50,821 bases of DNA, taken from Candidatus Fermentithermobacillaceae bacterium. GTDB taxonomy: Bacteria > Bacillota > Sulfobacillia > Fermentithermobacillales > Fermentithermobacillaceae. The translations under genes and the position numbers were made by a program. The stretch covers positions 1-50,821 of the forward strand of contig DUSU01000099.1 in the NCBI GenBank assembly GCA_012842425.1. Direction: 5' to 3'. Under the pieces are notes generated by a model. The model made no database searches. It was not told the origin of the DNA and was given only the letters and a program-made list of their open reading frames with translations. Below, one piece after another: positions 16,943 to 41,307 of the stretch. The first letter of the stretch is position 1; every line of letters begins with the position of its first letter.

Positions 16943-17048
16943 ATTCTCTCTCGTGTTCCCTGAAGGAGTATTTCGGGAGACGCAGAATCAAGCATGAAGG
17001 ACTGAACAGGGGTATCAGGACAAACTTCGTTCTTTGGGGGAGTTACGG

Positions 17049-17774
17049 TTGGACCAGCCCATCCTTCGCACTGTTAACCTCCGGAAATCTTTCTTCCTGG
17101 GGCAGACGATCTACGCCGTCAACGATGTGAACCTGCAGGTTGACCAAGGCGAGTTTGTAGTGATCATGGGGCCGTCGGGAAGCGGAAAAAGCACTTTGCT
17201 TGCCCTTCTGGGAGGGTTGGACCGCCCTCAATCAGGCGATGTCATCCTGAGCGGGGAGAGGTACTCCAAACTGTCGGAGAACGGGCTCGCGAGGATCCGC
17301 CGGAACAAAGTCGGGTTCGTGTTCCAGTTCTTCAACCTGATACCTCACCTTACGGCTCTTGAGAATGTGATGCTTCCGATGAGGTTCGGAGGCAAGACAA
17401 AGCGCCAGATGGAAGACCGGGCCAAAGAGCTCTTGGATATCGTCGGTCTGAGCGCCCGAAAGGACCATAAGCCTCTGGAACTCTCAGGAGGCGAGCAGCA
17501 GCGGGTGGCTATCGCGAGGGCACTGGCCAATGAACCCGATGTGGTCCTGGCCGACGAGCCTACGGGAAACCTCGACCGGAAGACATCTTCTGAGATAGGA
17601 GAGATATTCCACAATCTAAACAGTGACAACGGGCAAACCTTCATCGTTGTGTCTCACGACCCGTCGCTCACTAAGTATGCCCACAGAGTCGTGAACATGT
17701 TGGACGGGCAGATCGTCGAGATAACCGGAGGAGGCATGGAGGGGGTCCCTCTCACTACTCCTGCATATCGCTAG
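17049..17774 (+). CDS. MacB/LolD/FtsE-type ABC transporter ATP-binding protein (ATPase-1)
   Basis: Walker [11 protein letters not shown]-loop [10 protein letters not shown], signature LSGGEQQR, Walker [10 protein letters not shown]-loop VVSHD. TTG 17049 follows GGGGGAG (17036-17042) by 6 nt. The ORF track starts at TTG 17034, which has no RBS. Confidence 0.9.
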
Positions 17775-17789
17775 GAAGGACTGCTTGAC

Positions 17790-19511
17790 ATGGTCAATAG
17801 CTACGTTCATTTGGACATCGGAAACACCGTTACCCGGGCAAAAGCCTGGAGCGCCTCTGCCCAAGGAGCACGGCTTCTGGCTTCCGCGACCATCCCCACG
17901 CCTCCGGCTCTCGAAAGCGTCGACCTCACCGAGAGCGCCTTCTTGGCGTACACGGAAGTGAAGGCCAAGGTTGAGGAGTCCGGGCAGAGGTTCGATCCTG
18001 AAGAAATCCTGGTCACGGTGAGCGCCGCCGGAGAGCCGAGAGTTGCGTGCGCCGGTGTGGTAAAGGGGATATCCGGAGAATCGGCCAAGCGCGCGGCTCT
18101 GGTCGCGGGGGCTACTGTGACCGATCTCCTCGCCGTAGATGACGGTCGCCTGGAATACCAGCGGATCCTCGACCTTAGAAGGCAGGACATCTCCATGGTG
18201 GTCATGGCCGGAGGTGTCGACGAAGAGATATTGGGACAAGGCCGTCACCAGCTCTTTAACGTGGCCAAGGTCGTTGCCGCAGGTCTGCCCGATCGAAGGG
18301 GGGCTGGGACTAAAGTTCCAGTCGTCTATGCAGCGTCGCTGGAAGGCCGCGAAGAAGTGCTCAAGATCTTCGGGGACTCAGTAGACGTGGTGTGGACCGA
18401 CAATGTGCGTTCCCGCCTCGAAGAGGAAAACCTAGAGCCCGCACGGGATGCCGTTCTGAACCTTTTCTCGACCGGGATCCGCCACGACCCACGGTTCACC
18501 GGGTTGGGCAGGTTTGGGGCTGCAAAGGTGCTTCCCACCGGACACTCAACCGGCCTCTCGGTCCGCAGGATGGCGGAAGTCCTTAAGCAAAACGTCTTAG
18601 TCATTTCGCTGGACGGAGATACCATCCAGGTATTTTCCCAGATCAGAGGGGTTTTTACCAGGACCGTGACTCCGGTAACGCGCGTACAGGCCAAAGATGT
18701 GACGAGATGGCTGCCGTCGGCGCGGTTGGGCGAGCGTCTCGACGACGTGCTGGCCAATTGGAAGGCCGCGCCGGGTACGCTTCCGGCATCGTGGGACGAC
18801 CTGGCCCTCTATCTGGCCATTCAGAAACAGGCGCTTCTTGAGGCCGTACGCGAGCACTCGGTAACCGCGATCGAACTACGCGGGATCCACAGACAGCGCC
18901 AGATCGGAGAGACCTTCCAGGTGAATGTCAAAGGAGGAGACACCCTGGTAAGGATGGAGCGAATCGGCACCGTGTGTATCACCGGTTTCTTGGCCGGGCT
19001 CCTTTCGCCGGCCGCGCTTCTCTCTCTCGTGCCGGATGCCTTTGAGCTTCACGGCGTGACAAAGGTTTACGTAGACAGGGAAGGAGTACTCGAGTCTCTG
19101 GCGGCCGTTCAAGAGGAGCCGGATCTTCTCCCCGAGTCGCTTCTTACACCTGCCGGTGTGATACTAAGTCCCGGCAGAAATGAAGAGCGCATCGGAACGA
19201 GGTGGGCCTTCATAAAGAAGGATTCCACACTCGAGCCCCTGCTTGTGAAGCCGGGAGAGATATGTCACATTCCCATACTGGCCCCGCATCCGGTGGTATT
19301 CGAACTGCATCCCTCAGGCAAGGGAGATGTGGGCGACGGAGAGGGCCGGAGATTCTCCGCTCAGGCGGTAGGTTTTGGTTCGGCCTACGTGGATGCCAGG
19401 GTGTTCGGCCGGAAAACCGATGACCGCTACCGTGAGAACAGGAACACGTACAGGGTGTTTGGAGTGTTCCCTGACGATGTTTTGAGCGGATGGGAAAGGG
19501 GGATGAAGTGA
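17790..19511 (+). CDS. GlmL/MutL-family (hydantoinase-A/reactivase-like ASKHA) protein, divergent paralog A
   Basis: 573 aa, colinear with the 605-aa paralog at 26006. Its nucleotide-binding motifs are degenerate (HLDIGNTVTRA; VMAGGVDEEI; ISLDGDTIQVFS). Confidence 0.7.
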   Translation: MVNSYVHLDIGNTVTRAKAWSASAQGARLLASATIPTPPALESVDLTESAFLAYTEVKAKVEESGQRFDPEEILVTVSAAGEPRVACAGVVKGISGESAKRAALVAGATVTDLLAVDDGRLEYQRILDLRRQDISMVVMAGGVDEEILGQGRHQLFNVAKVVAAGLPDRRGAGTKVPVVYAASLEGREEVLKIFGDSVDVVWTDNVRSRLEEENLEPARDAVLNLFSTGIRHDPRFTGLGRFGAAKVLPTGHSTGLSVRRMAEVLKQNVLVISLDGDTIQVFSQIRGVFTRTVTPVTRVQAKDVTRWLPSARLGERLDDVLANWKAAPGTLPASWDDLALYLAIQKQALLEAVREHSVTAIELRGIHRQRQIGETFQVNVKGGDTLVRMERIGTVCITGFLAGLLSPAALLSLVPDAFELHGVTKVYVDREGVLESLAAVQEEPDLLPESLLTPAGVILSPGRNEERIGTRWAFIKKDSTLEPLLVKPGEICHIPILAPHPVVFELHPSGKGDVGDGEGRRFSAQAVGFGSAYVDARVFGRKTDDRYRENRNTYRVFGVFPDDVLSGWERGMK

Positions 19512-20722
19512 TGGCCGTGTACGCTTTGAGCAGGCCGAGAGTCCTTAAGGACGCGCCGGTTAGGAGGCTCCGGATTTTCCCGTCCGTTGGCGAATCGATG
19601 GTATCCCCCGGGTCCAAGGTTGAGGCGGGTACTATACTCGGGAAGTATGCTTCCAGGCAGCGCCTTAGGTTTGTAAGGATGGAGACGGCGGGAGACAAGA
19701 TAGCCGCCACCTTGCTGGTTACTGAAGGCCAGAAAGTCAAACGCGGGGAAGTCCTCGGTTACTATTCCTACATGTTTGGCCTGGGTTACACGGAGTACAC
19801 GTCGCCCTGCGACGGCGAGATAGAGGTGATCAGCCACGCGACCGGACGTGTCGCCATAAAAGAGGAACCTTCCGAGATGGCGAGTCACCTCCCGGGGACA
19901 GTCGAGCACGTTGAGGAAGCCGTGGGCGTCCTGGTGCGTACCCGCGGCCATATGGTTGTGGGAGCCGCCGGAGCAGGCTATGCCAGGTCGGGGGCTCTTG
20001 TCAGGAAGGCCGGAGAGCCTACCGAGCAAGTGTCGCCTCAGAAGGTTAGCCCCCAAGATGCGGACCGTGTGGTCCTTGCAGGTTCTACAGTGACCAAAGA
20101 ACTCCTGGAGGCTTGCCTCAGGTCTCGCGTGGCGGCGATTATCGCGGGAAGCGCCCCCTTTAGCGTCGTGCAGTGGTACGAAAACCTTGTTCAGGAGCTG
20201 GACTGGGACGAATTCCTGGCAAGGTACTGGGCAAGGGAACTAAAGAAGAAAGACGCGGTCGTGCCGCGTCCCACCGAGATCGTCCCGGCTCTCGTGCTCA
20301 CCGAAGGGTATGGCAACATGCCTATGTCGGATGAGGCCTTCGAACTTCTCTCGTCTTTCGAGGGTAAGCCGGTTTTTGTAGACGGCGCGAGCCTTGCCGG
20401 TGTCGCGGCAGGCAGGTGGGATGCAGGCCCCTGTGTGATCATGCCCTTTGCGGGTGCCGGTGGCGAAGAAGCGACGGATGGCAGCGCGGGCAGCGGTTCG
20501 GGTGACCCGGCTGGGAGGCCCAAAGCCCTCAGAGAGCTGGCGCCGGGTGTGAGGGTCCGGGTTTATGGTCTCACCCGCGAGCCTGTAGAAGGGACTGTGG
20601 AAGGTCCGGCCCAAGAGGATTCTGCGCTTCCGGTTAGTATCCCGGTGAATTCCGTTCGTGTTGTCACCAAGGGCGGGGAGACGATTACCGTTCCGGCCGC
20701 GAACATTCAGGCCTTGGGGTGA
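19511..20722 (+). CDS. Uncharacterised cytoplasmic protein A: barrel-sandwich-hybrid (lipoyl-like) N-domain, central alpha/beta domain, KOW/SH3-like C-terminus
   Basis: ATG 19511 overlaps the upstream TGA (TGATG) and AAAGGGGGA lies 7 nt upstream. The ORF track starts at ATG 19490. Motifs shared with the paralog at 27825: LVTEGQ-V--G; YSPCDG(E/T)IE-IS; (T/M)EG(Y/F)G-MPM; G-RVR near the C-terminus. No signal peptide or TM helix. Confidence 0.75.
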   Translation: MAVYALSRPRVLKDAPVRRLRIFPSVGESMVSPGSKVEAGTILGKYASRQRLRFVRMETAGDKIAATLLVTEGQKVKRGEVLGYYSYMFGLGYTEYTSPCDGEIEVISHATGRVAIKEEPSEMASHLPGTVEHVEEAVGVLVRTRGHMVVGAAGAGYARSGALVRKAGEPTEQVSPQKVSPQDADRVVLAGSTVTKELLEACLRSRVAAIIAGSAPFSVVQWYENLVQELDWDEFLARYWARELKKKDAVVPRPTEIVPALVLTEGYGNMPMSDEAFELLSSFEGKPVFVDGASLAGVAAGRWDAGPCVIMPFAGAGGEEATDGSAGSGSGDPAGRPKALRELAPGVRVRVYGLTREPVEGTVEGPAQEDSALPVSIPVNSVRVVTKGGETITVPAANIQALG

Positions 20723-20821: not shown

Positions 20822-22909
20822 ATGAGGTGCCAAGATATCTTTCGCCAGAACCTCCGCCACTTAATGGCAGAGCACGGACTCAAAGTAAAGGACTTAGCCG
20901 ACATGGTCGGTCTAAGTCCTTCTTATCTTTCGCTCATACTCTCAGGCGAGCGGCAGAACCTCAGCGACTTCCACAAGGACGCCATAGCCCTGGCGCTTGG
21001 GACCACGGTCGCTGCACTGTACACACCGGGGGCCTTCGGTTTTCCCGCAGATGAAGCCGGTTTTCAGAGTGAGGAAGAAGGCCGGTTTGGAGCAATGACC
21101 GGCCGTCCGCTGAGGTCAGGCAGTGCTCCCAGACCGGGCCGGGAACTGGACCGGACGCTTGCACAGCGAAGGCGTGGAGCGCCTGAGCCCGGAACACGTG
21201 GGCCCGGTCGGGATATCGGTGCTTTCGAAGATTTCCTTAAAGCCTTGAACGTTAAGGATGACGCGCTTCTCGCCGCCTATTACAAAGAACTGAATGCCCT
21301 CTCGGATGACGAGATCGGGCGGTTCGGAGAGGTTATCCGCAGGACGCTTGCTTCATGGCAGGCAAGTTTGGCCGGCCAGCAGTCTGAGAAACCCGCCCCT
21401 GCGGACATATCCCTGACCGGGCCGCTCTCAGCCGAGGGCCGCCTCTTCGCCGGACTGATAGGTTGGCTTGCTCCTATCTTAGGAGACGTAGCGCTGGAGG
21501 TATTTGAGATAGCATTCGGATGGCCCAAAGGAAAGGCATTCCGCCTGGCGGGCGCTCTAGAGGCTGCCGGAGCGGTGATTGTGAGCCCTGCTGAGGAGGG
21601 GCGCGCAACGGTCAGTTTGGCTCCCCGTCTGGACCTGCGCCTTGCCCGGAACTGGGTACAGTCCCCGCTCAAAGAGGAGTGTCTGGGGCGGCTTGCCCGC
21701 CACCTGAGCTCTCTGCTTGAGGCCTCGCACGACGAAGAAGGCATGCGGCAAGCGTCGGAGGCAAAGGCCACCCCCTTCGGAGAGATCGGACCCGAGAAGA
21801 TAGGAGAGCTGTTCCTCGAGTCTCATGATTACCCGAGTGCCCGAGTCTGGTACGAGCGGGCGGCGGCGCAGTCCCTCGGCGCCCACTCCTGGAGGCTCGC
21901 CAAGGAGCATCTGGAAGTGGTGATGATGCTGGACGGCATCCTCGGGACTGACCCTGAGGAAAGAGCCCACACCTACCAGATGATAGCCGACGCGTGCCTG
22001 AACTTGGGCGATGTGGACGAAGCCCTCATGTACCAGGAGCACAACATTGGTTACTGGGAGAGCGCGGGCCGGAGGGCCGACGTGATAATGGGGCTTTTGA
22101 GAGCAGGCCTTATGCTGGCAAGACGCCGCGACTGGGCCAAAGCGAAAGAGTATCTCGAGCGCGCCATCAGCATCTCGTCCAATGACCTGGCGCTTCAGGC
22201 CCGGTCCCGGATCGGGTTGGCCTCTATTCTAGCGTCGAGTGGTTTGCTGAAGGCCGCGTTTGAAGAGCTTAACAAGGCGCTCGACATCGGGACCAGGCTC
22301 AATGAACCGCTCATCATCGTCCGGTCGCTCCTCGGACTGGGGCGTGCGTACCTTGCGCGAGGAGACTTGCGCAGGGCATCGGTCTCGCTCAACCAGGCGT
22401 TGTCCCTGGCCGAGAGGCGCGACCCCGTAGCGAGGATTTGGGTGGGCATCGAACTCGGCCGCCTGTCTCTGGAAGAAGGCGATTACGCCAGAGCCCGGCT
22501 GGAGCTCGAGACCGCGGCGGACCTTGCGAAAGTCGGCGGCAACCTCTCCGAGGAGCACCTTGCGAGATCGTACCTAGCAGCCTGTCTCAGCCTGATGCCG
22601 GAAGAGATCGACCTCCGCGAGGCGTGGGCTCAGGCAGACGCTGCCCGGAGGTTTTTCGAGAGCACGGGCGACTTAAGGCGGCTCGTCGTTGCCCAGGTGG
22701 CCTGCGCGCAGGTCTTCGCGGCGCTCGGAGACGAGGGCCTTGCGGTGAAGTACTTCGACCAGGCGGCGCGAGCGGGCAGGGACTCAGAAGACCCGGCCCT
22801 CGAGGCCTACGCATGCCGGGCCTATGGTGAATATCTGGAGAGACTCGGCGACGAGCTGGCTCCCGTAATGATCGAGCGGGCGAGGTGGGCCAGGGCCAAG
22901 CTGAAGTAG
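20822..22909 (+). CDS. XRE-family HTH transcription regulator with a long C-terminal TPR-like domain
   Basis: 695 aa. N-terminal Cro/C1-type HTH (FRQNLRHLMAEHGLKVKDLADMVGLSPSYLSLILSGERQ), an Arg/Pro/Gly-rich linker, then ~400 aa of helical repeats with a TPR-like A/L/Y/G pattern (YERAAAQ, ALMYQEHNIGYWE, AKEYLERAISI, LGRAYLARGDLRRA, YARARLELETAADLA, GLAVKYFDQAARAG). Confidence 0.8.
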   Translation: MRCQDIFRQNLRHLMAEHGLKVKDLADMVGLSPSYLSLILSGERQNLSDFHKDAIALALGTTVAALYTPGAFGFPADEAGFQSEEEGRFGAMTGRPLRSGSAPRPGRELDRTLAQRRRGAPEPGTRGPGRDIGAFEDFLKALNVKDDALLAAYYKELNALSDDEIGRFGEVIRRTLASWQASLAGQQSEKPAPADISLTGPLSAEGRLFAGLIGWLAPILGDVALEVFEIAFGWPKGKAFRLAGALEAAGAVIVSPAEEGRATVSLAPRLDLRLARNWVQSPLKEECLGRLARHLSSLLEASHDEEGMRQASEAKATPFGEIGPEKIGELFLESHDYPSARVWYERAAAQSLGAHSWRLAKEHLEVVMMLDGILGTDPEERAHTYQMIADACLNLGDVDEALMYQEHNIGYWESAGRRADVIMGLLRAGLMLARRRDWAKAKEYLERAISISSNDLALQARSRIGLASILASSGLLKAAFEELNKALDIGTRLNEPLIIVRSLLGLGRAYLARGDLRRASVSLNQALSLAERRDPVARIWVGIELGRLSLEEGDYARARLELETAADLAKVGGNLSEEHLARSYLAACLSLMPEEIDLREAWAQADAARRFFESTGDLRRLVVAQVACAQVFAALGDEGLAVKYFDQAARAGRDSEDPALEAYACRAYGEYLERLGDELAPVMIERARWARAKLK

Positions 22910-23186: not shown

Positions 23187-24608
23187 ATGGATTTCATCCG
23201 CCTTGCTGTACGAGACGTTCGAAGGAACGGATCGCGTACCGGTCTCGCGATCGCAGCCACTGCCCTTGCCACTGTAATCCTCGTGCTCTCCAGGCTCGTC
23301 CCCCAAGGTTACATGAAGTACCTCGCCTACGCCGAACGTTCTTTCGCGGATGCAGACATTTTGGTGTGGAGCGCGCCTCAACACGTCTATTCAAAGGACA
23401 CATCGCCGCTGGAATGGAGAGATTGGTCGGGAGAAGAGTGGCAGTCTTTTGCAGGATACTTCTTGCCTGAACTCAAGTCCAAAGGATATGTCTCACCCGT
23501 GGACGCGCCCGGGTGGGGGCCGCTGGATGCCGGGAGACTGTCATCGATCATTTCTCAGGTCGAAGGCGTCGAAGAGGTTCTACCCTACCTGGCGTTTCCC
23601 TGCAAAGTGAGAGTGGGTGACGGCGAGTATGTGGACGCGATCCTCCGGGGCCGGGAGTTTCGCGGGCCAGACCGGCCTCTCGCAATGGACTGGCAGGTAA
23701 AGCGGGGTAGACCCTTGGGACCTCAGGACGAAAGATCACCTAACGCTCTTGTTCCTTTGGAACCTGAAGAGGAAGGTCCGCCGGGTGCCGTTGTCCCTCT
23801 GATTGCCGACGTCATAATACCCTACGCTCCGCATCTCGAAATGGAGATCTTGCTGCCGCGCCCTCAGGCCGGCACGGCACCATCTTGGGATAATCCGGTT
23901 TCCGCGAACCTCAGACAAGTCGGGGCATACAAGGTTGAGCTGGGAGTTGTCCCCGGCGAGTTCCCGGATGAGATTAGGCCCACCGGATACTGGAAGCGCC
24001 CTGAAGTCATAGTGAGCCGGACGACCTTCTTGGACCTTGTAAGCGGAGTGCTTCCCGAGCCTCCCGTGTATCAGATGCTGGTAAAGGTGGTCCGCCATTC
24101 AGACACAAAGGTCATCGTTGAGAGGCTCCGGCAGGCGCTCGGACCCGATTACGGGGTTTATGCGATCGCGGAACTTGTCTCAACCTCCGGCGACATGAGC
24201 GGGATAAGCCTCATCGTCCCCGACATGTCTTCGCTCATGAGATGGATGACCATCACCATGGCCGGCGGCATCGTTGCGGCATCCGTCTATGTCCTTCTGG
24301 CCCTCCAGACGCGAAAGATCGGGCTCCTCAGGGCCATAGGGGCGACATCCAAAGACATCATTTTGTATGCGTTGTCTGCCGTGGCATACACGACTCTTGC
24401 CGGTATCGCCATAGGTTTCGTGCTGGGCAAGATCATCACCTTAACCGTTATCGCAGCAACAGACTTTACCTTCTTCGAATGGCTTAAGATGGCGGGCTAC
24501 GACGCCCTCTTGTCCCTGTCGGGCATAGCGATCCCACTCACCTTGGGGCTGGCGGTCGCGATCTGGGCGTCTCGAATCCCCTGTGCGGAGGTGCTTAGAC
24601 GTGAGTGA
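23187..24608 (+). CDS. MacB/FtsX-type ABC permease with a large extracytoplasmic domain
   Basis: 473 aa. N-terminal LAVRDVRRNGSRTGLAIAATALATVILV (TM1), a ~300-aa hydrophilic domain, then a C-terminal FtsX domain (IGLLRAIGATSKDI plus three TM helices). GGAGGGAG lies 7 nt before the ATG. Confidence 0.85.
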   Translation: MDFIRLAVRDVRRNGSRTGLAIAATALATVILVLSRLVPQGYMKYLAYAERSFADADILVWSAPQHVYSKDTSPLEWRDWSGEEWQSFAGYFLPELKSKGYVSPVDAPGWGPLDAGRLSSIISQVEGVEEVLPYLAFPCKVRVGDGEYVDAILRGREFRGPDRPLAMDWQVKRGRPLGPQDERSPNALVPLEPEEEGPPGAVVPLIADVIIPYAPHLEMEILLPRPQAGTAPSWDNPVSANLRQVGAYKVELGVVPGEFPDEIRPTGYWKRPEVIVSRTTFLDLVSGVLPEPPVYQMLVKVVRHSDTKVIVERLRQALGPDYGVYAIAELVSTSGDMSGISLIVPDMSSLMRWMTITMAGGIVAASVYVLLALQTRKIGLLRAIGATSKDIILYALSAVAYTTLAGIAIGFVLGKIITLTVIAATDFTFFEWLKMAGYDALLSLSGIAIPLTLGLAVAIWASRIPCAEVLRRE

Positions 24609-25356
24609 TTGGCTTGGACCTATCTTGCACTGTCATGAGATCACCAAGCTCTACCCCGTGGCAGACGGGCTGTTTGCCCTAAAAAACGTAGAGCTCGAGG
24701 TGGAAGAGGGCCAGTTTGTGGTGATAACCGGGCCGTCAGGATCGGGGAAGACCACCCTCCTCAACATCCTCGGCGGGATCGACAGGCCGACTCACGGCGA
24801 GGTGATCCTCAAGGGGCGGAAGTACTCCCGGATGAGCGAGGACGACCTGGCTCTCCTCAGAAGGCGCGATCTGGGGATGGTCTTTCAGTTCTTCAACCTC
24901 ATACCGGAACTCACGGCCGCCGAAAACATAGGTTTTCCCATGAGGCTCCTCGGATGGGAGGAGCGAGCCGTGATAGATAGGCTGACTTATCTCATGGAAG
25001 CCGTGGGGATTTCGGGCAGGGCAGACCACTACCCGATGGAGCTCTCAGGTGGGGAACAGCAGCGCGTGGCGATCGCCAGGGCGCTGGCAGTGAAGCCCGC
25101 AGTTGTGCTTGCCGACGAGCCCACCGGCAACCTTGATTCGGCGAGGTCCAGGGAGATCATGGAGCTCTTCGCCAAGTTCAACAGAGAGGAGCGACAAACG
25201 TTCGTGGTGGTCACCCATGAGCGCGGGTTTGAGGAGTATGCCGATCTTGTCCTAAGGCTTTCAGACGGAAGAGTGGCGGAGAGGGTGGTGAAAAATGGTC
25301 AGCGTGGCGCGGAAGGAAAAACTGAGCGTCCCTCCTGTGCCGTTACACCTTCTTAA
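24601..25356 (+). CDS. MacB/LolD/FtsE-type ABC transporter ATP-binding protein (ATPase-2)
   Basis: [40 protein letters not shown]. About 60% identical by eye to ATPase-1. GTG 24601 follows GGAGGTG (24587-24593) by 7 nt and overlaps the upstream stop (GTGAGTGA). The ORF track starts at 24583. Confidence 0.9.
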   Translation: MSDWLGPILHCHEITKLYPVADGLFALKNVELEVEEGQFVVITGPSGSGKTTLLNILGGIDRPTHGEVILKGRKYSRMSEDDLALLRRRDLGMVFQFFNLIPELTAAENIGFPMRLLGWEERAVIDRLTYLMEAVGISGRADHYPMELSGGEQQRVAIARALAVKPAVVLADEPTGNLDSARSREIMELFAKFNREERQTFVVVTHERGFEEYADLVLRLSDGRVAERVVKNGQRGAEGKTERPSCAVTPS

Positions 25357-25987
25357 GACCATAGCGGTCAGGCGGATCGCGACCTACAAAGCGATTGTCG
25401 TAATCGTTTCGCTGTCAACCGCCCTGGCAGTGGCCGCATCTTTCGTCGTGACCGCGATGACGGAGACAATGATCTGGGCGATGGAGTCCAGGGTAGTGGA
25501 TAGGCAGGCCGACAGCGGGAGGCTTGCGGTGGCGATGGTCCGCCGGGCGAGCCGGGCGGCCTTTCTTCCCTGGCACGTTGTATCGCTGGCAGCGGCAGTT
25601 GTAGCCCTTTCCGGCATCGCTTGCGTGCTTTCCGTGAACTTTGTCGGCAGGAAGAAGAGCCTGGGGATCCTCAAGACGCTCGGTGGAACCACAAGAGACC
25701 TGACGAGGCTCCTTGCGCTTGAGGCTGCTTATACGGCCGCTTTCGGCCTCCCGCTCGGGCTACTGGGGGGCTCCGTCATCACGACAGCGTACTTGGGTAC
25801 ACAGGCTGTGAGTCCATGGTGTTTTGTTGTGTCCATCGTTTTCGGTTTGTTGTCGCTGGCGTCCGGCGTGTACCTACCGGTCAGGCTTGTGAGAAACGCC
25901 AGCTGCGCTCAACTCCTCCTGAACAGATCGGTTTACGCGTTCTCCAACCCGTCGTGCGCCCAGTGCGGTCTTTGCGGCGGATTCTGA
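25295..25987 (+). CDS. Small FtsX-type permease with a minimal extracytoplasmic loop and a Cys-rich C-terminal tail
   Basis: 230 aa with four predicted TM helices. FtsX signature SLGILKTLGGTTRDL. Only ~45 residues separate TM1 and TM2. C-terminal tail NPSCAQCGLCGGF. It overlaps the ATPase-2 end by 62 nt, and AGGGTGGTG lies 5 nt before the ATG. Confidence 0.75.
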   Translation: MVSVARKEKLSVPPVPLHLLKTIAVRRIATYKAIVVIVSLSTALAVAASFVVTAMTETMIWAMESRVVDRQADSGRLAVAMVRRASRAAFLPWHVVSLAAAVVALSGIACVLSVNFVGRKKSLGILKTLGGTTRDLTRLLALEAAYTAAFGLPLGLLGGSVITTAYLGTQAVSPWCFVVSIVFGLLSLASGVYLPVRLVRNASCAQLLLNRSVYAFSNPSCAQCGLCGGF

Positions 25988-26005: not shown

Positions 26006-27823
26006 ATGAGAAGGATTTTGGCGGCTGATGTAGGGAGTACGACGACCAAAGTCACGCTCTTTGTGAAGGATACCGGGGGTTGGAAACTGGCCGGGAAGAT
26101 GGTTGCGCCTACCACGGTAGAGGCCCCCGACCTGGATGTCATGATAGGTCTGCGAAATGCCCTGGCCAAGCTCGAAAGGCGGACGGGGATCAAGCTCCTG
26201 GACGGGGCGAGGCTCCTGGTGCCCGGCTCGGGAGAGGACGGGGCCGACATTTTTGTGGCGACCTCGAGCGCCGGCGGCGGCCTTCAGATGATGGTGACGG
26301 GGCTAGTTGGGACCATGACGGCCGAATCGGCCCACCGGGCGGCTCTCGGAGCGGGCGCAGTGGTGTCTGACGTCGTTTCTTTGGACGACAACCGCACCCT
26401 CATCGAGCGACTGGAAGCCATCAAGGCCATGAGGCCCGACATGATACTGCTGACGGGCGGCACCGATGGCGGAAACGTAAGCGACGTGGCGGCCATCGCC
26501 GAGTACATCTCCATGGCCCGCCCTGAACCGAGGTTCGGCAAGGACTTCAAGATCCCGGTCATCTACGCGGGCAACGTGGATGCCAGGGACATGGTGGACG
26601 AAGTCTTGAGAGAAGCCAATGACGTCACGTACACGGACAACATAAGGCCTGAACTGGAGAGCGAGCGTCTGGGCCCGGCCCGAGAGGCGATCAGCCGGAT
26701 ATTCTTGGAACACGTGATGATGCGGGCCCCGGGTTACGGGACGCTCGTGAACTGGACGGACGGCGCCGTGAGGCCCACACCCGTCGCAGTGGGCGAAGCC
26801 CTCAAGTACGCAGCGGCGTATTTCGGGACGAACGTCCTCGGAGTAGATATTGGAGGCGCCACAACCGATGTATTCTCGGTAATAGAGGGCCGGCTCTACC
26901 GCACGGTGTCCGCCAACCTCGGGATGTCCTACAGCATGGCCAACGTCCTCGCCGAGGCGAAGCCGGATTCGATCCTCAGGTGGCTCCCGTGGGAGTTCGA
27001 CGAGAACATCGTCCGCAACTGGCAGTTCAACAAGATGGTGAGGCCTACGACGCTTCCTCAGACCCTCGAGGACCTCATGCTGGAGCAGGCCGTGGCCACC
27101 GAGGCTTTGCGCCTCTCCCTGGAACACCACAAATCTCTTGTGAGGGGTCTCAAGGGCGTCCACCAGAGACGCACTGTGAGCGACGTATTCTTCCAGACCG
27201 GCACAGGCGAGACCCTGGTGAAGATGATGGAGACCGGAGTCATCATAGGTTCCGGCGGAGCTCTTTCACATGCCCCAAGGTGGGGGCAAGCGGCTCTCAT
27301 CATGATAAACGCTTTCCGGCCCGAAGGAGTGACCGAACTTTGGGTTGACAACCGGTTCCTCCTCCCGCACCTGGGGGTACTGCTCGAGACGGCGAGGGAA
27401 AAAGCGGATGAGGCGATACGGGAGATCCTAACCCGCGAGACCCTCGTCCCCGTGGGTACTGTGATAGCCCCCGTCGGGCCCGCCGCGCGGGATGGAAGCG
27501 TCATAGCCGAAGTCAGGGCCGGAGGGGAATCTCAGTCCGTTACCGCGGGCGACATGAGCGCTCTCAGTGTCCCCGCCGGAGGGTGCGACGTGGAGGTTAT
27601 CCCGAAGAAGGAGTACGACGTCGGAAACGGTCCCGGGGCGGCAGTCCGGTTTGCGGTAAAGAAAGGCATGCCGCACCTTATCTTGGACGGCAGGCATAGA
27701 CCGCTGGACCTCCACAGCGACTCCCGCAGGCGGATTGAGAAGATCAAGAGATGGCACAGGGCCCTGTCGGCGTATCCGGACCAGGATGCGGCGGTAGAGA
27801 CTCTCGCTAAGGAGGTGAGCTGA
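26006..27823 (+). CDS. GlmL/MutL-family ASKHA ATPase, canonical paralog B
   Basis: 605 aa. ADVGSTTTKV, SSAGGGLQMMV, AESAHRAALGAGA, LLTGGTDGGN and VDIGGATTDVFS closely follow what I recall of clostridial GlmL (DFGSTYTKV ... SSAAGGL ... GGTDGGN). It carries a ~140-aa beta-rich C-terminal extension shared with paralog A. Confidence 0.85.
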   Translation: MRRILAADVGSTTTKVTLFVKDTGGWKLAGKMVAPTTVEAPDLDVMIGLRNALAKLERRTGIKLLDGARLLVPGSGEDGADIFVATSSAGGGLQMMVTGLVGTMTAESAHRAALGAGAVVSDVVSLDDNRTLIERLEAIKAMRPDMILLTGGTDGGNVSDVAAIAEYISMARPEPRFGKDFKIPVIYAGNVDARDMVDEVLREANDVTYTDNIRPELESERLGPAREAISRIFLEHVMMRAPGYGTLVNWTDGAVRPTPVAVGEALKYAAAYFGTNVLGVDIGGATTDVFSVIEGRLYRTVSANLGMSYSMANVLAEAKPDSILRWLPWEFDENIVRNWQFNKMVRPTTLPQTLEDLMLEQAVATEALRLSLEHHKSLVRGLKGVHQRRTVSDVFFQTGTGETLVKMMETGVIIGSGGALSHAPRWGQAALIMINAFRPEGVTELWVDNRFLLPHLGVLLETAREKADEAIREILTRETLVPVGTVIAPVGPAARDGSVIAEVRAGGESQSVTAGDMSALSVPAGGCDVEVIPKKEYDVGNGPGAAVRFAVKKGMPHLILDGRHRPLDLHSDSRRRIEKIKRWHRALSAYPDQDAAVETLAKEVS

Positions 27824-27824
27824 A

Positions 27825-29228
27825 ATGGCCTTTAGTTCCAACCTGAGGCTCCTACAGAAAGCCTTTCTAAAGAAGACCCGGAAACTCTCGGTGCCCGGCG
27901 AGGTTCTCGTTACCGAGGGACAGACGGTAAACCCCGGCGACATAATCGCCAAGACGGATCTCGTCCCCGGCGGGCCGCGGGTCATAGATATCACCGCTGA
28001 AGTAGGGAAGAAGCTCACACCCGAGGAGATCGACAAGCTCATCACCAAGAAGCCGGGCGACAAGGTCACGAAGCAAGAAGTGCTGGGGGTATACCGGCGG
28101 GGTTTCTGGGAATCCGGCAGGACCATCTATTCTCCCTGCGACGGTACCATAGAGTACATCTCAAAGACCCAGAGGCGGATTATCATCCGAGAAGACCCCC
28201 GCTCGGCTGCCCCGATGTCGGTCGTGGCGGTCGCCTCCAAACTGTCCATATGGCCTTGGACCATCAGGATGTACACCACGGCCAACGAAGGAGACGAGGT
28301 GTTTGCCGGGCAGGTCCTGGCGGCTGCCTCCAACATTGGCCAAATGGACTACGTCTACTCACCCATGACGGGTGTGGTTGAGAGGATATGCCCGAAGAGC
28401 GGCACCATCACTATTGTGCGGCCCGTAAGGCCGAGCCAGGTCAAGGCCCACCTGGGCGGTGTAGTCACGCAAGTGGTGCCCGAGTACGGGGCGGTAGTCG
28501 AAGCCACCGGCTCGTACCTTGAGGGGGTATTTGGAATCGGAGGAGAGCGGTTCGGTGAGATCGTGCTCGCGACAGACGGGCCGGACGGTGACCTCGACGA
28601 GGCGGGAGTGGATGTATCCTACAAGGGCAAGGTCCTCGTCGCCGGAAGGTTTGTGTCCCTGGAAGCCCTGAAGAAGGCGCGGATGATCGGGGTTTCCGGC
28701 ATCATCACCGGAGGCATCAACAACCTGGACTTGGTGCAGTTCCTGGGCAAGGAGATCATTGTCGGCATCACGGGCCAGGAAGATACGGACCTCACCATCA
28801 TAGTAATGGAAGGCTTCGGCCCTATGCCTATGAACGAGAAAGCCTGGAACCTCTTGGCCTCGAAGGCGGGCAAAGTCGCTTCGATAGACGGGACCACCCA
28901 CATAAGGGCCGGAGCGGTGAGGCCTCAGGTGCTCATAAGCGACGGGGTGCTGGAGCCGGATCCATCGACCGCACCCTGGCCTGAGGAGCAAGTATCCCGG
29001 GCCGACCGCCCGCTCATAACCAACCTTGCCGTTGGCGACAGGGTGAGGTGCGTGAGACGGCCGTACTTCGGGCTCTGGGGCGTCGTCCTGGACCTTCCTT
29101 CTGACCCTCTTCCGGTCGAGTCCGGTTCGCACATGGAAGTGGCGCTGGTGAGGCTCGACGACGGCAGGGAAGTCATGATTGCCGAAGCAAACTTGGAGGT
29201 CTTTAGAGAGATAGACACTCCTGCTTAG
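27825..29228 (+). CDS. Uncharacterised cytoplasmic protein B: two barrel-sandwich-hybrid-like segments, central alpha/beta domain, KOW/SH3-like C-terminus
   Basis: 467 aa. The ATG comes 1 nt after the upstream TGA (TGAaATG) and AAGGAGGTG lies 7 nt upstream. Motifs: VTEGQTVNPGDIIA, YSPCDGTIEYIS, a second GDEVFAGQVL...SPMTGVV segment, MEGFGPMPM, and a C-terminal VGDRVRCV...VALVRLDDGREVMI. Confidence 0.75.
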   Translation: MAFSSNLRLLQKAFLKKTRKLSVPGEVLVTEGQTVNPGDIIAKTDLVPGGPRVIDITAEVGKKLTPEEIDKLITKKPGDKVTKQEVLGVYRRGFWESGRTIYSPCDGTIEYISKTQRRIIIREDPRSAAPMSVVAVASKLSIWPWTIRMYTTANEGDEVFAGQVLAAASNIGQMDYVYSPMTGVVERICPKSGTITIVRPVRPSQVKAHLGGVVTQVVPEYGAVVEATGSYLEGVFGIGGERFGEIVLATDGPDGDLDEAGVDVSYKGKVLVAGRFVSLEALKKARMIGVSGIITGGINNLDLVQFLGKEIIVGITGQEDTDLTIIVMEGFGPMPMNEKAWNLLASKAGKVASIDGTTHIRAGAVRPQVLISDGVLEPDPSTAPWPEEQVSRADRPLITNLAVGDRVRCVRRPYFGLWGVVLDLPSDPLPVESGSHMEVALVRLDDGREVMIAEANLEVFREIDTPA

Positions 29229-29327
29229 GAGCGCCCGGAAGATCACACAGCGGTTAGAACAATGGACCGGTACCGCTCAGATCCAGAGGCGAGAGGTACC
29301 GGCCAGTTTGTCTCTTGGGCCCGGGCT

Positions 29328-29519
29328 CTAGATGCTGCTTTCAGGCATGATAACTGCTGCGACGAAGTAGAAGAGGACCCCGGGAAAAATGCCGGTGGCC
29401 ACGGTGAGGAAAGCGACGCCGAGCCTGACGATCGTTTCATCTACGTCGAAATACTCGGCGATGCCTCCGCATACGCCTGCGACCATCTTCTTTGTCCGCG
29501 AGCGGTAGAGCCTTTTCAT
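29328..29519 (-). CDS. PspC-domain small membrane protein
   Basis: MKRLYRSRTKKMVAGVCGGIAEYFDVDETIVRLGVAFL plus one TM helix. ATG 29519 follows GAGGAGG by 8 nt. The ORF track extends to a TTG at 29561. Confidence 0.8.
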   Translation of the reverse strand: MKRLYRSRTKKMVAGVCGGIAEYFDVDETIVRLGVAFLTVATGIFPGVLFYFVAAVIMPESSI

Positions 29520-29787
29520 TGACAGATCCTCCTCGGAATCTTCTTTCAAGGTAGACGCCAATACATCCTTATGATACGCAGAGCTATTCTTCCGGTAACA
29601 AGGTACCCCGGATCCCGTCGGATCTAAGCGGGGCTAGGGCGAAACATTAGCGGGACCCAGGCGGCAGCTCAAGGGGTTATGTCACGGGGAAATTGTTACA
29701 CAATTTATCTATTTTGTGATCCTTCTTGCCTCTGAAGAATTGTGGTGATAAGTTGAACCTAGAAGATTATTTGGCGAGGTGTAATCC

Positions 29788-38253: not shown

Positions 38254-39084
38254 GTGTCAGAGTTTCTGCTTGCTGCTGAAGCCGTTCCACCCAAGCTGGG
38301 CATCTTCCGCCCCGTCAATAACACGGTCTTCTCGGTGCTCATAAGCATCGTCATGATCATCCTCGTGTACGTGATGATCAACAGGGCCAAGAAGGGCGAG
38401 AAGATTCCGGAGATCCGCAAGATCCCCGGCATCGAGGCGTTCGAGGAGGCCATCGGCCGCGCAACCGAGATGGGCAAGCCGGTCCACATGACCGACTACA
38501 GCACCGCTCTCGGTGACGACTCCACCTTCGCTTACTGGTCGTTCCTGGCGTACATCGCCAAGCAGTGCGCCCAGTACGACACCCGGTTCATCGCGACCGA
38601 CGCTAACTACCTGGTTAACGTCGTGAACCAGGAAATCGTTAAGCAGGCTTACTTGGAGGCCGGTAAGCCCGACGCCTACAACCCCGACGATATCAGGTTC
38701 ATCGCCGGTTCCCAGTTCGCTTGGGCGATGGGCGTCGCGGGTCTTGTCGCGCGCGAGAAGCCGGCGGCTCAGTTCCTGGTCGGTTACTTCTACGCTGAGT
38801 CTCTGATCCTCGCCGAGGCCGGAAACCTCGTGGGGGCCATCCAGGTAGCTGCTGCCAGCTCCCCTGCCCAGATCCCGTTCTTCGTCGCCGCTTGCGACTA
38901 CACCATGATTGGTGAGGAGCTTTACGCCGGCGCCGCCTATGTCTCCAGAGACCCGGTCATTATGGGTACTGTGGTTGCTCAGGACATAGTCCGCGTCTCA
39001 CTGTACGTGATCATCCTTCTCGGCGGCATCGTCCAGTGGCTGTCGCCGCAGAACAATTTCATCAGGAACTTCATCAACTTCTAG
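38254..39084 (+). CDS. Uncharacterised bitopic membrane protein (module A)
   Basis: 276 aa. GTG start 7 nt after AGGAGGTG (38239-38246). N-terminal TM (VFSVLISIVMIILVYVMI), a ~200-aa soluble domain, and a C-terminal TM (VSLYVIILLGGIVQWL). No family recognised. Confidence 0.8.
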   Translation: MSEFLLAAEAVPPKLGIFRPVNNTVFSVLISIVMIILVYVMINRAKKGEKIPEIRKIPGIEAFEEAIGRATEMGKPVHMTDYSTALGDDSTFAYWSFLAYIAKQCAQYDTRFIATDANYLVNVVNQEIVKQAYLEAGKPDAYNPDDIRFIAGSQFAWAMGVAGLVAREKPAAQFLVGYFYAESLILAEAGNLVGAIQVAAASSPAQIPFFVAACDYTMIGEELYAGAAYVSRDPVIMGTVVAQDIVRVSLYVIILLGGIVQWLSPQNNFIRNFINF

Positions 39085-39117
39085 CGCCTTTTGCACGCGA
39101 GTTGATGTTGGAAGGAG

Positions 39118-39780
39118 GTGCAGTCGGTGAGAAAAGAGATCCCGTTCGCCCTAAGCTTGATCTTCGCGGCCTTCAGGTTCTGCCTTGAGGCCTTTGAGGG
39201 TCCTTACAACTATGCTCTGGCATCCGGTGACAAACTTCTGAACGCCATGTCATGGGCGATGACCTTCATGTCCTGTGGTGCGCTTTTCCTGGGAGCGCTG
39301 AACCTTATCCGGATTCACTCCAACAACATCCGGAGGAAGAGGCCATACTGGCAGTTCAGTGTCTACCTCCTGGCTATCCTAGTGTACCAGTCCATCATGG
39401 GTCTGGCGACGCACCATACGGCTCCCGTGTATGCCTGGCCGTATAACGCTATCTACCTCCCGTTGGACGCCACGATGTTCTCGCTCCTTGCGTTCTACAT
39501 CGCTTCGGCGGCCTACAGAGCTTTCCGAGTGAGGAACGTCGATGCGGCCGTCATGCTCACGTCAGCGTTCATTCTGATGCTCGGTAACGTTCCGATTGGT
39601 GAAGTTATCTGGGGTCCTGACAAGTTCTTGGGCGGCTTCGCCGGAATCAAGAACTGGATCCTGCGCGTTCCCAACGCCGCCGGCAACAGGGCCATTACTT
39701 TGGGTATCTTCTTGGGAATCATGGCCACTCAGAGCCGTATACTCCTCGGCATCGAGAGGCGTCACCTTGGTCAAGAATAG
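39118..39780 (+). CDS. Uncharacterised polytopic membrane protein (module B)
   Basis: 220 aa with ~6 hydrophobic segments. The GTG start follows GGAAGGAGG. The C-terminal AGNRAITLGIFLGIMATQSRILLG resembles the C-terminus of the fourth gene. Confidence 0.8.
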   Translation: MQSVRKEIPFALSLIFAAFRFCLEAFEGPYNYALASGDKLLNAMSWAMTFMSCGALFLGALNLIRIHSNNIRRKRPYWQFSVYLLAILVYQSIMGLATHHTAPVYAWPYNAIYLPLDATMFSLLAFYIASAAYRAFRVRNVDAAVMLTSAFILMLGNVPIGEVIWGPDKFLGGFAGIKNWILRVPNAAGNRAITLGIFLGIMATQSRILLGIERRHLGQE

Positions 39781-39816
39781 CCTGACGCTCACTTAGGTAG
39801 CGGAAAGGAGGGAATA

Positions 39817-40671
39817 GTGTTGAAGTTCCTGGAGAGGTTCGATCAGATAAACCCCCAGATAGTATACTTGCTTATGGCGGTTGCCTTGATATTCCCGGTG
39901 CTTAAACCCATCGGATTGCCCCTGAGCATCGACCAGCAGCTCACAATGCCGGTTTACCAGTGGATCGAGAGCCTGCAGCCCGGCGACATCGTTATATTCG
40001 ATGCCGCATACGGTGGCGGTTCTGACTCGGAGCTTGGTCCCCAGCTCAAGGCTTGGTTCACCCACTGCATGATGAAGGGCGTCAAGGTGGTAGGTTTGGC
40101 GCAGTGGGAGGCCGGCGCCACTCTGGCTTACAACTCGCTGAAGGCCTTGTCGGAGCAGCTTAAGGCCGAAGGCATTCCCTGCGAGTACGGCGTCGACTGG
40201 GTCTTCCCCGGATACAAAGCCGGTGGCGGTCCCACCTGGAGATCCATGCAGGACGACTTCTGGGCCGCTTGCGGAAACGTTGACTGGGAGAAGACAGACT
40301 TCAGCCAGCTCCCGCTTTTGCAGAGGCTCAAGAAGTGGACCCCCGAGACTGTTAAGGGAATTATGTGCTTCTCTGCAGGTAGCCCGGGTATCCCCACGTT
40401 CACTCAGTACTTCGCCGATCACAAGCTGTACGTGGGTGACGTGGCGGTACAGGTCGCGGGAACCAGCAACCTGCTCCGTTCTGGTCAGGTTAAGGGTATT
40501 ATCCCCGGTCTGAGCGGCGCCGCTCAGTACGAGAAGCTGATTGGCCGTCCGGGACTCGGCGTCAAGCTCATGGACGCCCAGTCGCTGGGGCACTCGATCA
40601 TCATAATTTTGGTTATCCTTGGCAACATCGGTTACAGGCTCAAGATGCGTAACACGCAGAGGCGCGCCTAG
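39817..40671 (+). CDS. Uncharacterised bitopic membrane protein (module A')
   Basis: 284 aa, GAAAGGAGGGA RBS. Same architecture as the first gene (N-terminal TM, ~220-aa soluble domain, C-terminal TM SIIIILVILGNIGY). GDIVIFDAAYGGGSDSELGPQLKAWFTHCMMKGVKVV aligns loosely with GKPVHMTDYSTALGDDSTFAYWSFLAYIAKQCAQYDTRFI of gene 1. Confidence 0.8.
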   Translation: MLKFLERFDQINPQIVYLLMAVALIFPVLKPIGLPLSIDQQLTMPVYQWIESLQPGDIVIFDAAYGGGSDSELGPQLKAWFTHCMMKGVKVVGLAQWEAGATLAYNSLKALSEQLKAEGIPCEYGVDWVFPGYKAGGGPTWRSMQDDFWAACGNVDWEKTDFSQLPLLQRLKKWTPETVKGIMCFSAGSPGIPTFTQYFADHKLYVGDVAVQVAGTSNLLRSGQVKGIIPGLSGAAQYEKLIGRPGLGVKLMDAQSLGHSIIIILVILGNIGYRLKMRNTQRRA

Positions 40672-40704
40672 CGTCACCTGAAAGGGAAAGCGAGGTGAAA
40701 CTAA

Positions 40705-41307
40705 ATGTCTAGAACTCAAGTTTGGGTTGCGGCGCTAGCCACTTTGGCGTGTTACAGCTACCTGTACAAGGAGAACTTTTTCTTCAGGTTGGCAGAGCAC
40801 ACCATGATACCCCTGGCCGTTGCGCACGTCTTGACAACGGGTTGGCACAACACGTTCCTTCCCTACATCGAGACCCATGTCAAGGGCAAGGGCTGGTGGT
40901 GGTTCTGGATCTTCTTCGTGATGGGAGTTCTGTACTACGCCAGGTTCCTGCCGGCAAGGTGGGCATGGATAACCAGATATCCCATCTCAGTTAGTGTAGG
41001 ATGGTCGCTCGGATACTACTTCTCGCTGTTCCCGAGGCAGTACGGTGTTCAGATCGCCGACGCCGTGAGGGACCTTGGTGTGTTCGAGAACATCCTATTC
41101 TTCCTCATGTTCGCCACGTCAATGATGTACTTCTTCTTGACGGTCGGCGGCAACTCCAAACCCTTCCGCACAGCAGCGCAGTGGGGTAGATGGATCCTCA
41201 TGGTCGGTTTCGGCGCAAGCTTCGGCAACACCGTTTCCGGCCGTATCTCGCTCTTCCTTGGCAGGCTCTCGTTCCTCCTCACGGAGTGGCTGGGAGTGGC
41301 CCTGTAA
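40705..41307 (+). CDS. Uncharacterised polytopic membrane protein (module B')
   Basis: 200 aa with ~6-7 hydrophobic segments, rich in aromatic residues (GWWWFWIFFVMGVLYY). AAGCGAGGTGA RBS. C-terminal VSGRISLFLGRLSFLL. Confidence 0.8.
   Translation: MSRTQVWVAALATLACYSYLYKENFFFRLAEHTMIPLAVAHVLTTGWHNTFLPYIETHVKGKGWWWFWIFFVMGVLYYARFLPARWAWITRYPISVSVGWSLGYYFSLFPRQYGVQIADAVRDLGVFENILFFLMFATSMMYFFLTVGGNSKPFRTAAQWGRWILMVGFGASFGNTVSGRISLFLGRLSFLLTEWLGVAL

Follow-up and report, generated by a model that had tools for sequence, protein, structure and literature searches.

What is the role of a protein from an unnamed family whose gene stands directly behind that of a GlmL-like ATPase? The question is raised by a stretch of DNA of 50,821 nucleotides (nt) from Candidatus Fermentithermobacillaceae bacterium (contig DUSU01000099.1, positions 1 to 50,821; here called the window), in which two such genes occur: one at 27825-29228, whose 467-residue product we call partner B, and one at 19511-20722, encoding the 403-residue partner A. 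Window features lie on the plus strand unless marked otherwise. The ATPase, a long GlmL/MutL-type protein of the ASKHA class with about 600 residues and a match to PF13941, is referred to as MutL-long, and its window copies as MutL-B and MutL-A. The partner is a three-domain cytoplasmic protein with an obligate genomic partnership to MutL-long, a partnership supported by gene fusion and co-duplication. The family as a whole is, in our judgement, probably though by no means certainly explained as a dedicated cytoplasmic partner of MutL-long that would modulate or transmit its cycle and dock on membrane proteins.

An initial annotation, made from the sequence alone, had described the two open reading frames (ORFs) as paralogs lacking a membrane segment, and this description stands. 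Both ORFs are real and co-directional, the motif strings quoted for them are present in the translations, and partners A and B are true paralogs, since BLASTP aligns them at 1e-16, with 27% identity over 226 residues of the central block, and in a second segment at the N-terminus (4e-11). The strings LVTEGQKVKRGEVL in A and VTEGQTVNPGDII in B, which had been paired with each other, are different half-motifs of one domain rather than aligned positions. The ORF of partner A opens at 19490, but 19511, the start originally chosen, is the better one, because a GGGGGA Shine-Dalgarno sequence lies 7-13 nt 5' of its ATG, the junction with MutL-A reads TGATG, with the ATG overlapping the upstream TGA by 1 nt, and a database protein 99% identical to partner A has 403 residues. 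At the other junction, the MutL-B stop (27823) and the partner B start (27825) are separated by 1 nt, and a strong Shine-Dalgarno sequence for partner B lies within the 3' end of MutL-B (AAGGAGGTGA). A 19-residue hydropathy scan revealed no transmembrane segment or signal peptide in either protein; the maximal Kyte-Doolittle means are 1.09 for B and 1.29 for A, and the N-termini are polar, as fits a cytoplasmic location. Contigs from four anaerobic-digester metatranscriptomes, which attest to presence and not to expression level, match parts of every gene of the block with at least 99% identity and at low depth; those for partner B include 28144-28363 and 28197-28440, and one contig spans the MutL-A/partner A junction (19284-19610).

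The fold of the partner was modelled with AlphaFold2 on partner B, using a 68-sequence alignment (predicted local distance difference test, pLDDT, 85.6; predicted template-modelling score, pTM, 0.68). In this model, it consists of a barrel-sandwich hybrid, a central domain of the swivelling beta/beta/alpha type and a C-terminal KOW barrel; the first and the last had been anticipated from sequence patterns, and Foldseek on AlphaFold models, the check then proposed, recovers both. The hybrid unit 1 (27849-28193, residues 9-123, with model strands over residues 9-123) matches PTS_EIIA_1 and Biotin_lipoyl_2, and three Pfam models score above their cut-offs in partner B: RnfC_N with 31.4 bits (cut-off 25.6), Biotin_lipoyl with 28.8 (22.1) and PTS_EIIA_1 with 29.4 (27.2). 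Foldseek agrees, matching the hybrid domain to RpoC2 Si3, BesA and BCCP. A second hybrid segment, likewise noticed at the outset, is an extra unit in partner B (28203-28424, residues 127-200), where residues 152-194 match RnfC_N at 2e-07 and Biotin_lipoyl at 1.1e-06. It constitutes an insertion of about 75-90 residues (about residues 125-200) at the same point in two Bacillota clades, B and L1, which thus have two hybrid units; canonical partners, with 372-377 residues, have one, as does the divergent partner A. The C-terminal KOW/SH3-like barrel (29028-29204, residues 402-460) follows a low-confidence linker at residues 380-399; it is supported by a comparison of the family profile with Spt5 KOW (E=1.7e-5) and by a Foldseek match to Spt5 KOW5 with a template-modelling (TM) score of 0.85 and a root-mean-square deviation of 2.1 Å.

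Each of these domains has well-known relatives from which the partner as a whole departs. Its hybrid N-terminus resembles those of RnfC and NqrA, lipoyl and biotinyl carriers, EIIA-Glc and the HlyD/MacA/YknX adaptors. Unlike the carriers (GcvH, BCCP, E2), which bear a modifiable lysine in a DKA or MKM context, it has no conserved lysine at either hybrid hairpin across the family alignment: the sole lysine near a hairpin is that of IIAKTD in partner B, canonical members read VVARTE or IVARTN, most members have arginine or threonine, and the second unit has no lysine at its hairpin at all. The resemblance to HlyD, MacA and YknX ends at the hybrid domain as well, since there is no membrane anchor, no membrane-proximal domain and no long alpha-hairpin, the helices of this domain in the model being 5-7 residues long; swivelling-type and KOW domains are found instead. 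With NusG and Spt5 the partner shares the KOW barrel, and Thermotoga maritima NusG (2xhc) is its top full-length Foldseek match (E 7.7e-6), but the overall TM score to 2xhc is 0.12-0.15, no transcription context is apparent, and the N-terminus is the hybrid barrel, with no Pfam match to an NGN domain at E<=1 in partner B. Neither partner B nor MutL-B finds a sequence match in the PDB at E<=1.

Since full-length Foldseek matched single domains only, the central domain (28434-28940, residues 204-372) was modelled on its own, reaching a pLDDT of 91.2. The initial annotation had noted this shared block, which is indeed present, without naming a domain. Its best structural match is RraA (E 1.3e-3, probability 1.0, TM score 0.41-0.45), followed by PA domains, MccF, kynurenine formamidase/isatin hydrolase and LeuD, with TM scores of 0.3-0.45 overall; RraA, PA domains, MccF, kynurenine formamidase and LeuD belong to what we take to be the swivelling beta/beta/alpha class, SCOP fold c.8. 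As none of these matches is close, we tentatively assign the domain to this fold class and to no closer family. The comparison with the RraA profile is faint (E 0.17), Pfam gave the domain no match in partner B, RraA-like or other, and the family motifs were not matched to those of RraA-, PA- or other swivelling-type proteins, a comparison made without residue-by-residue alignment. These motifs, FGIGGE (G234, G237, G239, E241), TEGFG (E329) and TQIRAGVIRPE (R366, P367), lie in glycine-rich loops, and the domain holds most of the invariant residues of the protein: G234, G237, G239, G244, G349, G356, R366 and P367, with E241 and E329 conserved in at least 90%. Partner B keeps FGIGGE, the TEGFG-type motif (as MEGFG), IRAG-VRP and PYFG.

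MutL-long itself has its nearest relatives, which are not relatives of the partner, in GlmL/MutL (glutamate mutase component L) and the Or-4 proteins (PF13941, NF040745, NF040744, TIGR01319). MutL-B (26006-27823, 605 residues) matches PF13941 at 8.8e-117 and keeps the nucleotide-binding motifs of the ASKHA fold, DVGSTTTK, SSAGGGLQM and DIGGATTD. It differs from GlmL, however, by about 130 additional C-terminal residues and by scores far below the curated NCBIfam GlmL and Or-4 cut-offs (230 against 475, 220.6 against 600 and 176.5 against 204, with MutL-A lower still); no mutase genes occur in the window or in any locus for which neighbours were listed; and we know of no GlmL operon with a dedicated hybrid-barrel/KOW partner such as MutL-long has.

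How tight is the link between the two proteins? The coupling to a GlmL-like gene had been described as invariable; this is true of both window copies, with their 1-nt gap and 1-nt overlap, but of the 76 partner genes preceded by 2.2 kb or more of sequence, 60 have MutL as their immediate upstream neighbour, typically at a spacing of -4 to +20 nt. Three natural fusions join MutL and partner in this order. One, of 993 residues, is found in locus L032 (13770-16751, minus strand), lacks the KOW domain and shares its locus with a canonical pair that is encoded separately; the others, P0196 and P0281, comprise about 1,000 residues, with PF13941 at the N-terminus. A further candidate, the 1,262-residue "MutL" ORF of L071 (6067-9855), was rejected as a fusion: its first 640 or so residues are low-complexity, high-GC read-through in a Gly/Arg/Pro-rich frame, almost certainly non-coding, and the real MutL starts near MDKDAIRSILATDCGSTTTK. 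The phylogenies tell a similar story. The partner tree resolves into four clades, namely the canonical form, Bacillota L1, B (including the gene at 27825) and A (including that at 19511), and the MutL tree mirrors it, the MutL proteins paired with the A, B and L1 subfamilies each forming one clade with a support of 100, 99 and 100. The pairs were thus duplicated as units.

The most telling connection, if an indirect one, comes from pair A. The A clade sits on a long branch and has four members, the window copy and those of L089-L091, with 35 database hits. MutL-A of the window (17790-19511, 573 residues, PF13941 1.4e-43) is a degenerate ASKHA paralog, and in all four A-type MutL proteins the phosphate-2, SSAGGGLQM and adenosine-type motifs are replaced, SSAGGGLQM being present in 54 of the 54 canonical ones; phosphate-1 is altered in the three members where the region aligns. 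All four A-type partners have lost FGIGGE, TQIRAGVIRPE and PYFG, and pair B keeps all of these. This correlated loss is our main reason for placing the central loops of the partner, indirectly, in the ATPase cycle. From its motifs, copy B looks catalytically competent. Because family-invariant motifs are lost in both partner A and MutL-A, pair A probably has no catalysis of its own and would serve, attached to an ABC ATPase, in regulation or as a scaffold. In place of the adenosine-type IGSGGxLSHAP, residues 396-414 of MutL-A (18975-19031) form a hydrophobic segment, CITGFLAGLLSPAALLSLV, with a hydropathy of 1.97, and all A-type members are similar here.

The family is widespread. A profile search over 1.84 billion cluster representatives returned 1,197 clusters (50% identity) at E<=1e-30 and 2,518 at E<=1e-10, and 587 stretches from one-genome-per-species contigs encode a partner relative. 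The best 80 of these 587 were surveyed by ORF calls and hidden Markov models, and all neighbourhood counts given out of 80 refer to them. They comprise 68 bacterial and 11 archaeal records from at least 17 named phyla, including Bacillota, Armatimonadota, Nitrospirota, Planctomycetota (anammox), Cloacimonadota, Elusimicrobiota and WOR-3; the archaeal carriers are of the TACK group (Bathyarchaeota, Methanomethylicia, Culexarchaeota). Nitrospira, anammox bacteria, Bathyarchaeia and abundant digester Bacillota are among the carriers. The partner tree tracks taxonomy, with 22 label changes compared with 51.9 for shuffled labels, and between archaea and bacteria the canonical partner is 49% and canonical MutL-long 56% identical. 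Further MutL-partner pairs reside elsewhere in the genomes of Fermentithermobacillus (L009, L014) and MAG124 (L015, L089). In agreement with the initial impression of an unnamed family, no Pfam or NCBIfam model spans the partner, and our literature searches found no publication on this system. The PADLOC defence library gave no match for pair A, pair B or DUF6754, and we have therefore dropped a defence-island reading.

In what company does the pair travel? By default it is accompanied in genomes by a small hydrophobic protein and a four-protein DUF6754 membrane module, usually in the order small protein, MutL, partner, DUF6754 and three further membrane proteins (M2, M3, M4). All seven genes are found in 24 of the 80 loci, and genes of the DUF6754 operon lie within 10 kb of the partner in 35. 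The pair adjoins this operon in L003, L007 and many of L009-L088; in L003 (Marinimicrobia) the small protein stands between the partner and DUF6754, the three other membrane proteins following, and in L007 the membrane operon diverges from the small protein-MutL-partner unit. The window carries the operon at 38254-41307 (276, 220, 284 and 200 residues; PF20539 at 4.1e-88), about 9 kb from pair B with pspC and the pur operon in between, a layout shared by L089 and L009; no homolog of the small protein was found in the window. Conservation from Bacillota to archaea, usually beside four membrane-protein genes, makes it probable that the pair is part of an undescribed membrane-associated system.

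Our structural and genomic observations suggest a mechanism for such a system. The partner would bind MutL-long through its glycine-rich central domain, with FGIGGE, TEGFG, IRAGVIRPE and R366 as the candidate contact elements, a binding role that we purely infer, and would thereby modulate or transmit the ATPase cycle. The flexible arm of the hybrid barrel and the KOW barrel on its disordered linker could then dock the pair onto cytoplasmic domains of its membrane partners. In the Bacillota lineage of the window, the pair was duplicated and placed in a locus for ABC transporters of the MacB/FtsX type. Several observations weigh against this proposal. The structural matches of the central domain are weak (best E 1.3e-3, TM score about 0.4). 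Furthermore, 16 of the 76 partner genes, from Armatimonadota, WOR-3 and Calditrichota, have no MutL within about 10 kb. Finally, the fused protein of L032 keeps IRAGVTRPQ and not FGIGGE; the link of FGIGGE and IRAGVIRPE with an active ATPase is therefore not a strict one.

Other genes adjoin the partner or its membrane module in individual lineages. Four Elusimicrobia-type loci carry a PMT/PMT_2-like GT-C glycosyltransferase gene between the partner and the DUF6754 operon, at L047:11175-13400, L067:11215-13425, L054:12346-14559 and L070:11021-13192, identified by Pfam in L047 and by phmmer in the others. In WOR-3 (L005:4825-8001 and L027:6810-9992), a TMEM260-like GT-C/TPR gene overlaps the start of the partner by 1 nt, and no MutL is nearby. 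These GT-C genes may be a clue to cell-envelope glycosylation. In Armatimonadota, a gene for an OmpR-type response regulator follows the partner at L038:11113-11790, L056:11110-11781 and L085:11016-11687, overlapping it by 4 nt in L038 and L056, and in L086 (2271-4142) it is followed by a gene of equal size, and that gene by one for a PAS histidine kinase; none of these four partners has an adjacent MutL. Taken together, the GT-C genes in two phyla, a Wzz-like gene and the regulators beside the partner point loosely in the direction of the cell envelope. Some DUF6754 proteins (L039:11139-13850, L083:10967-12601, L087:3740-5302) bear an N-terminal extension of 250-650 residues ahead of the first transmembrane segment of the conserved part; the opening stretch of this extension is hydrophobic and signal-like. 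To the eye the extension looks like a beta-rich extracytoplasmic domain, and if it is one, the conserved domain of DUF6754 would lie on the cytoplasmic side. Genes for Opp/Dpp-type peptide ABC importers (SBP_bac_5, permeases and oligo_HPY ATPases) adjoin the DUF6754 operon at L047:13471-19699 and L087:210-3771, which may be coincidence.

A bolder version of our proposal is more tentative, and we hold it to be possible but rather doubtful: the partner could be the transmission subunit of an ancient bacterial and archaeal membrane machine with interchangeable modules, powered by the actin-fold GlmL-type ATPase. Such a machine would draw its power from neither an ABC, an AAA+, a P-type nor a rotary ATPase, with the DUF6754 complex as its default module and MacB/FtsX transporters taking this place in some Bacillota. 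Its role may be in the handling of cell-envelope glycoconjugates, since in two phyla GT-C genes lie within the cluster or are coupled to it.

In the initial annotation, the partner was instead taken as a possible cytoplasmic adaptor between the GlmL-type ATPase and the ABC ATPases, here of the MacB/FtsE type, and the window contains some evidence in favour of this interpretation. Both of its ABC ATPases are intact and of the MacB/LolD/FtsE type: ABC ATPase 1 (17034-17774), with intact motifs, lies directly upstream of MutL-A, and ABC ATPase 2 (257 residues) is framed by FtsX permeases of 473 and 230 residues upstream of pair B (23187-25987). An XRE-HTH/TPR regulator (20822-22909) separates the two modules. 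The triad of ABC ATPase 1, MutL-A and partner A recurs in all four A-type loci (window, L089, L090, L091), each time with the ABC gene ending 8-15 nt before MutL-A. The whole series of ABC1, MutL-A, partner A, TPR regulator, FtsX, ABC2, FtsX, MutL-B and partner B is conserved in L091 and, as far as the contig reaches, in L090, the regulator position in both being held by a TPR protein for which only TPR families are on record; L011 carries the second half, FtsX-ABC-FtsX-MutL-partner. Moreover, the hybrid domain faintly matches BSH_YknX, from the adaptor of a MacB-type pump. As the function of the family, however, this linkage is not supported. FtsX is near the partner in 1 of the 80 species-level loci, the canonical family is found beside the DUF6754 operon, and neither it nor three of the six B-type loci (L001, L009, L010) have ABC or FtsX genes nearby. 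In Armatimonadota and WOR-3 the neighbours are the two-component and GT-C genes described above. The A-type clade, with its 35 hits and its lost motifs, is small. The ABC association is thus a derived feature of one Bacillota lineage and could be a lineage-specific use; for copies A and B of the window an ABC link is possible, and as an account of the family we regard the adaptor as unlikely.

Only slightly more improbable is that MutL-long and its partner form a soluble, ATP-dependent two-subunit enzyme in the manner of hydantoinase, oxoprolinase or acetone carboxylase, to which the RraA-like central domain would contribute a second active site and for which the neighbouring membrane proteins would transport substrate or product. 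MutL-long does show weak matches to Hydantoinase_A, among structures the central domain matches RraA best, whose fold is also used by aldolase and decarboxylase enzymes, and the charged residues E241, E329 and R366 are invariant within glycine-rich loops. Most of the invariant positions, however, are glycines, the partner matches neither Hydantoinase_B nor any catalytic family in Pfam, no metabolic genes recur around the cluster, and a KOW domain would be unusual in an enzyme.

It is very unlikely that the pair acts as a reactivating chaperone of the GlmL/EutA/DdrA kind for a cofactor-dependent enzyme, with the partner standing in for the swivelling domain that DdrA contains within its own chain. 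The closeness of MutL-long to the GlmL and Or-4 families and the swivelling-type fold of the partner would accord with this, but the NCBIfam cut-offs for these families are missed widely, none of the loci examined has genes for a B12 mutase, lyase or dehydratase in its vicinity, and no chain of DdrA or GdrA figures in the 50 best Foldseek matches of the central domain. Least credible of all, and rejected here for want of the defining features, is a lipoyl or biotinyl carrier or a periplasmic adaptor of the HlyD/MacA type, to which the domain-level Pfam matches (Biotin_lipoyl, RnfC_N, BSH_YknX) and database names such as "glycine cleavage system H" and "biotin carboxyl carrier protein" would point, for the carrier lysine and the export signal, anchor and hairpin of the adaptor are all missing, and the companion gene encodes a cytoplasmic ATPase.

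The surroundings of the two pairs are themselves conserved within the Bacillota clade: the window (14126-41307), L089 and L009 share the order guaB, MutL/partner module or modules, pspC, pur operon, queT, a gene with a NusG_II domain and the DUF6754 operon. Behind partner B lies an ORF of 86 residues (29262-29522), which was considered as a conserved small partner but proved to be the antisense shadow of the pspC gene that occupies 29328-29561 on the minus strand. Nowhere else in the region do metatranscriptome contigs reach such depth as over this stretch (12-30 compared with 1-6). In the 5' part of the XRE/TPR regulator gene, a metatranscriptome contig of run X25 skips 31 nt (20879-20911), perhaps because the strain differs or because the assembly is faulty.

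What does a dedicated partner of MutL-long mean for the family? In databases the ATPase goes under the name "glutamate mutase L", and the partner is entered as "lipoate-binding" or "biotin carrier"; our analysis indicates that both names are wrong. The pair is 49-56% identical between archaea and bacteria, yet the partner has escaped family models, sequence matches in the PDB and, as far as our searches reached, publication. Biochemistry can take hold of the pair through the three domains and invariant motifs of the partner, the fusions that occur in nature and the degenerate pair A. Should the pair drive a membrane complex, this would represent a new way to energise processes of the cell envelope.

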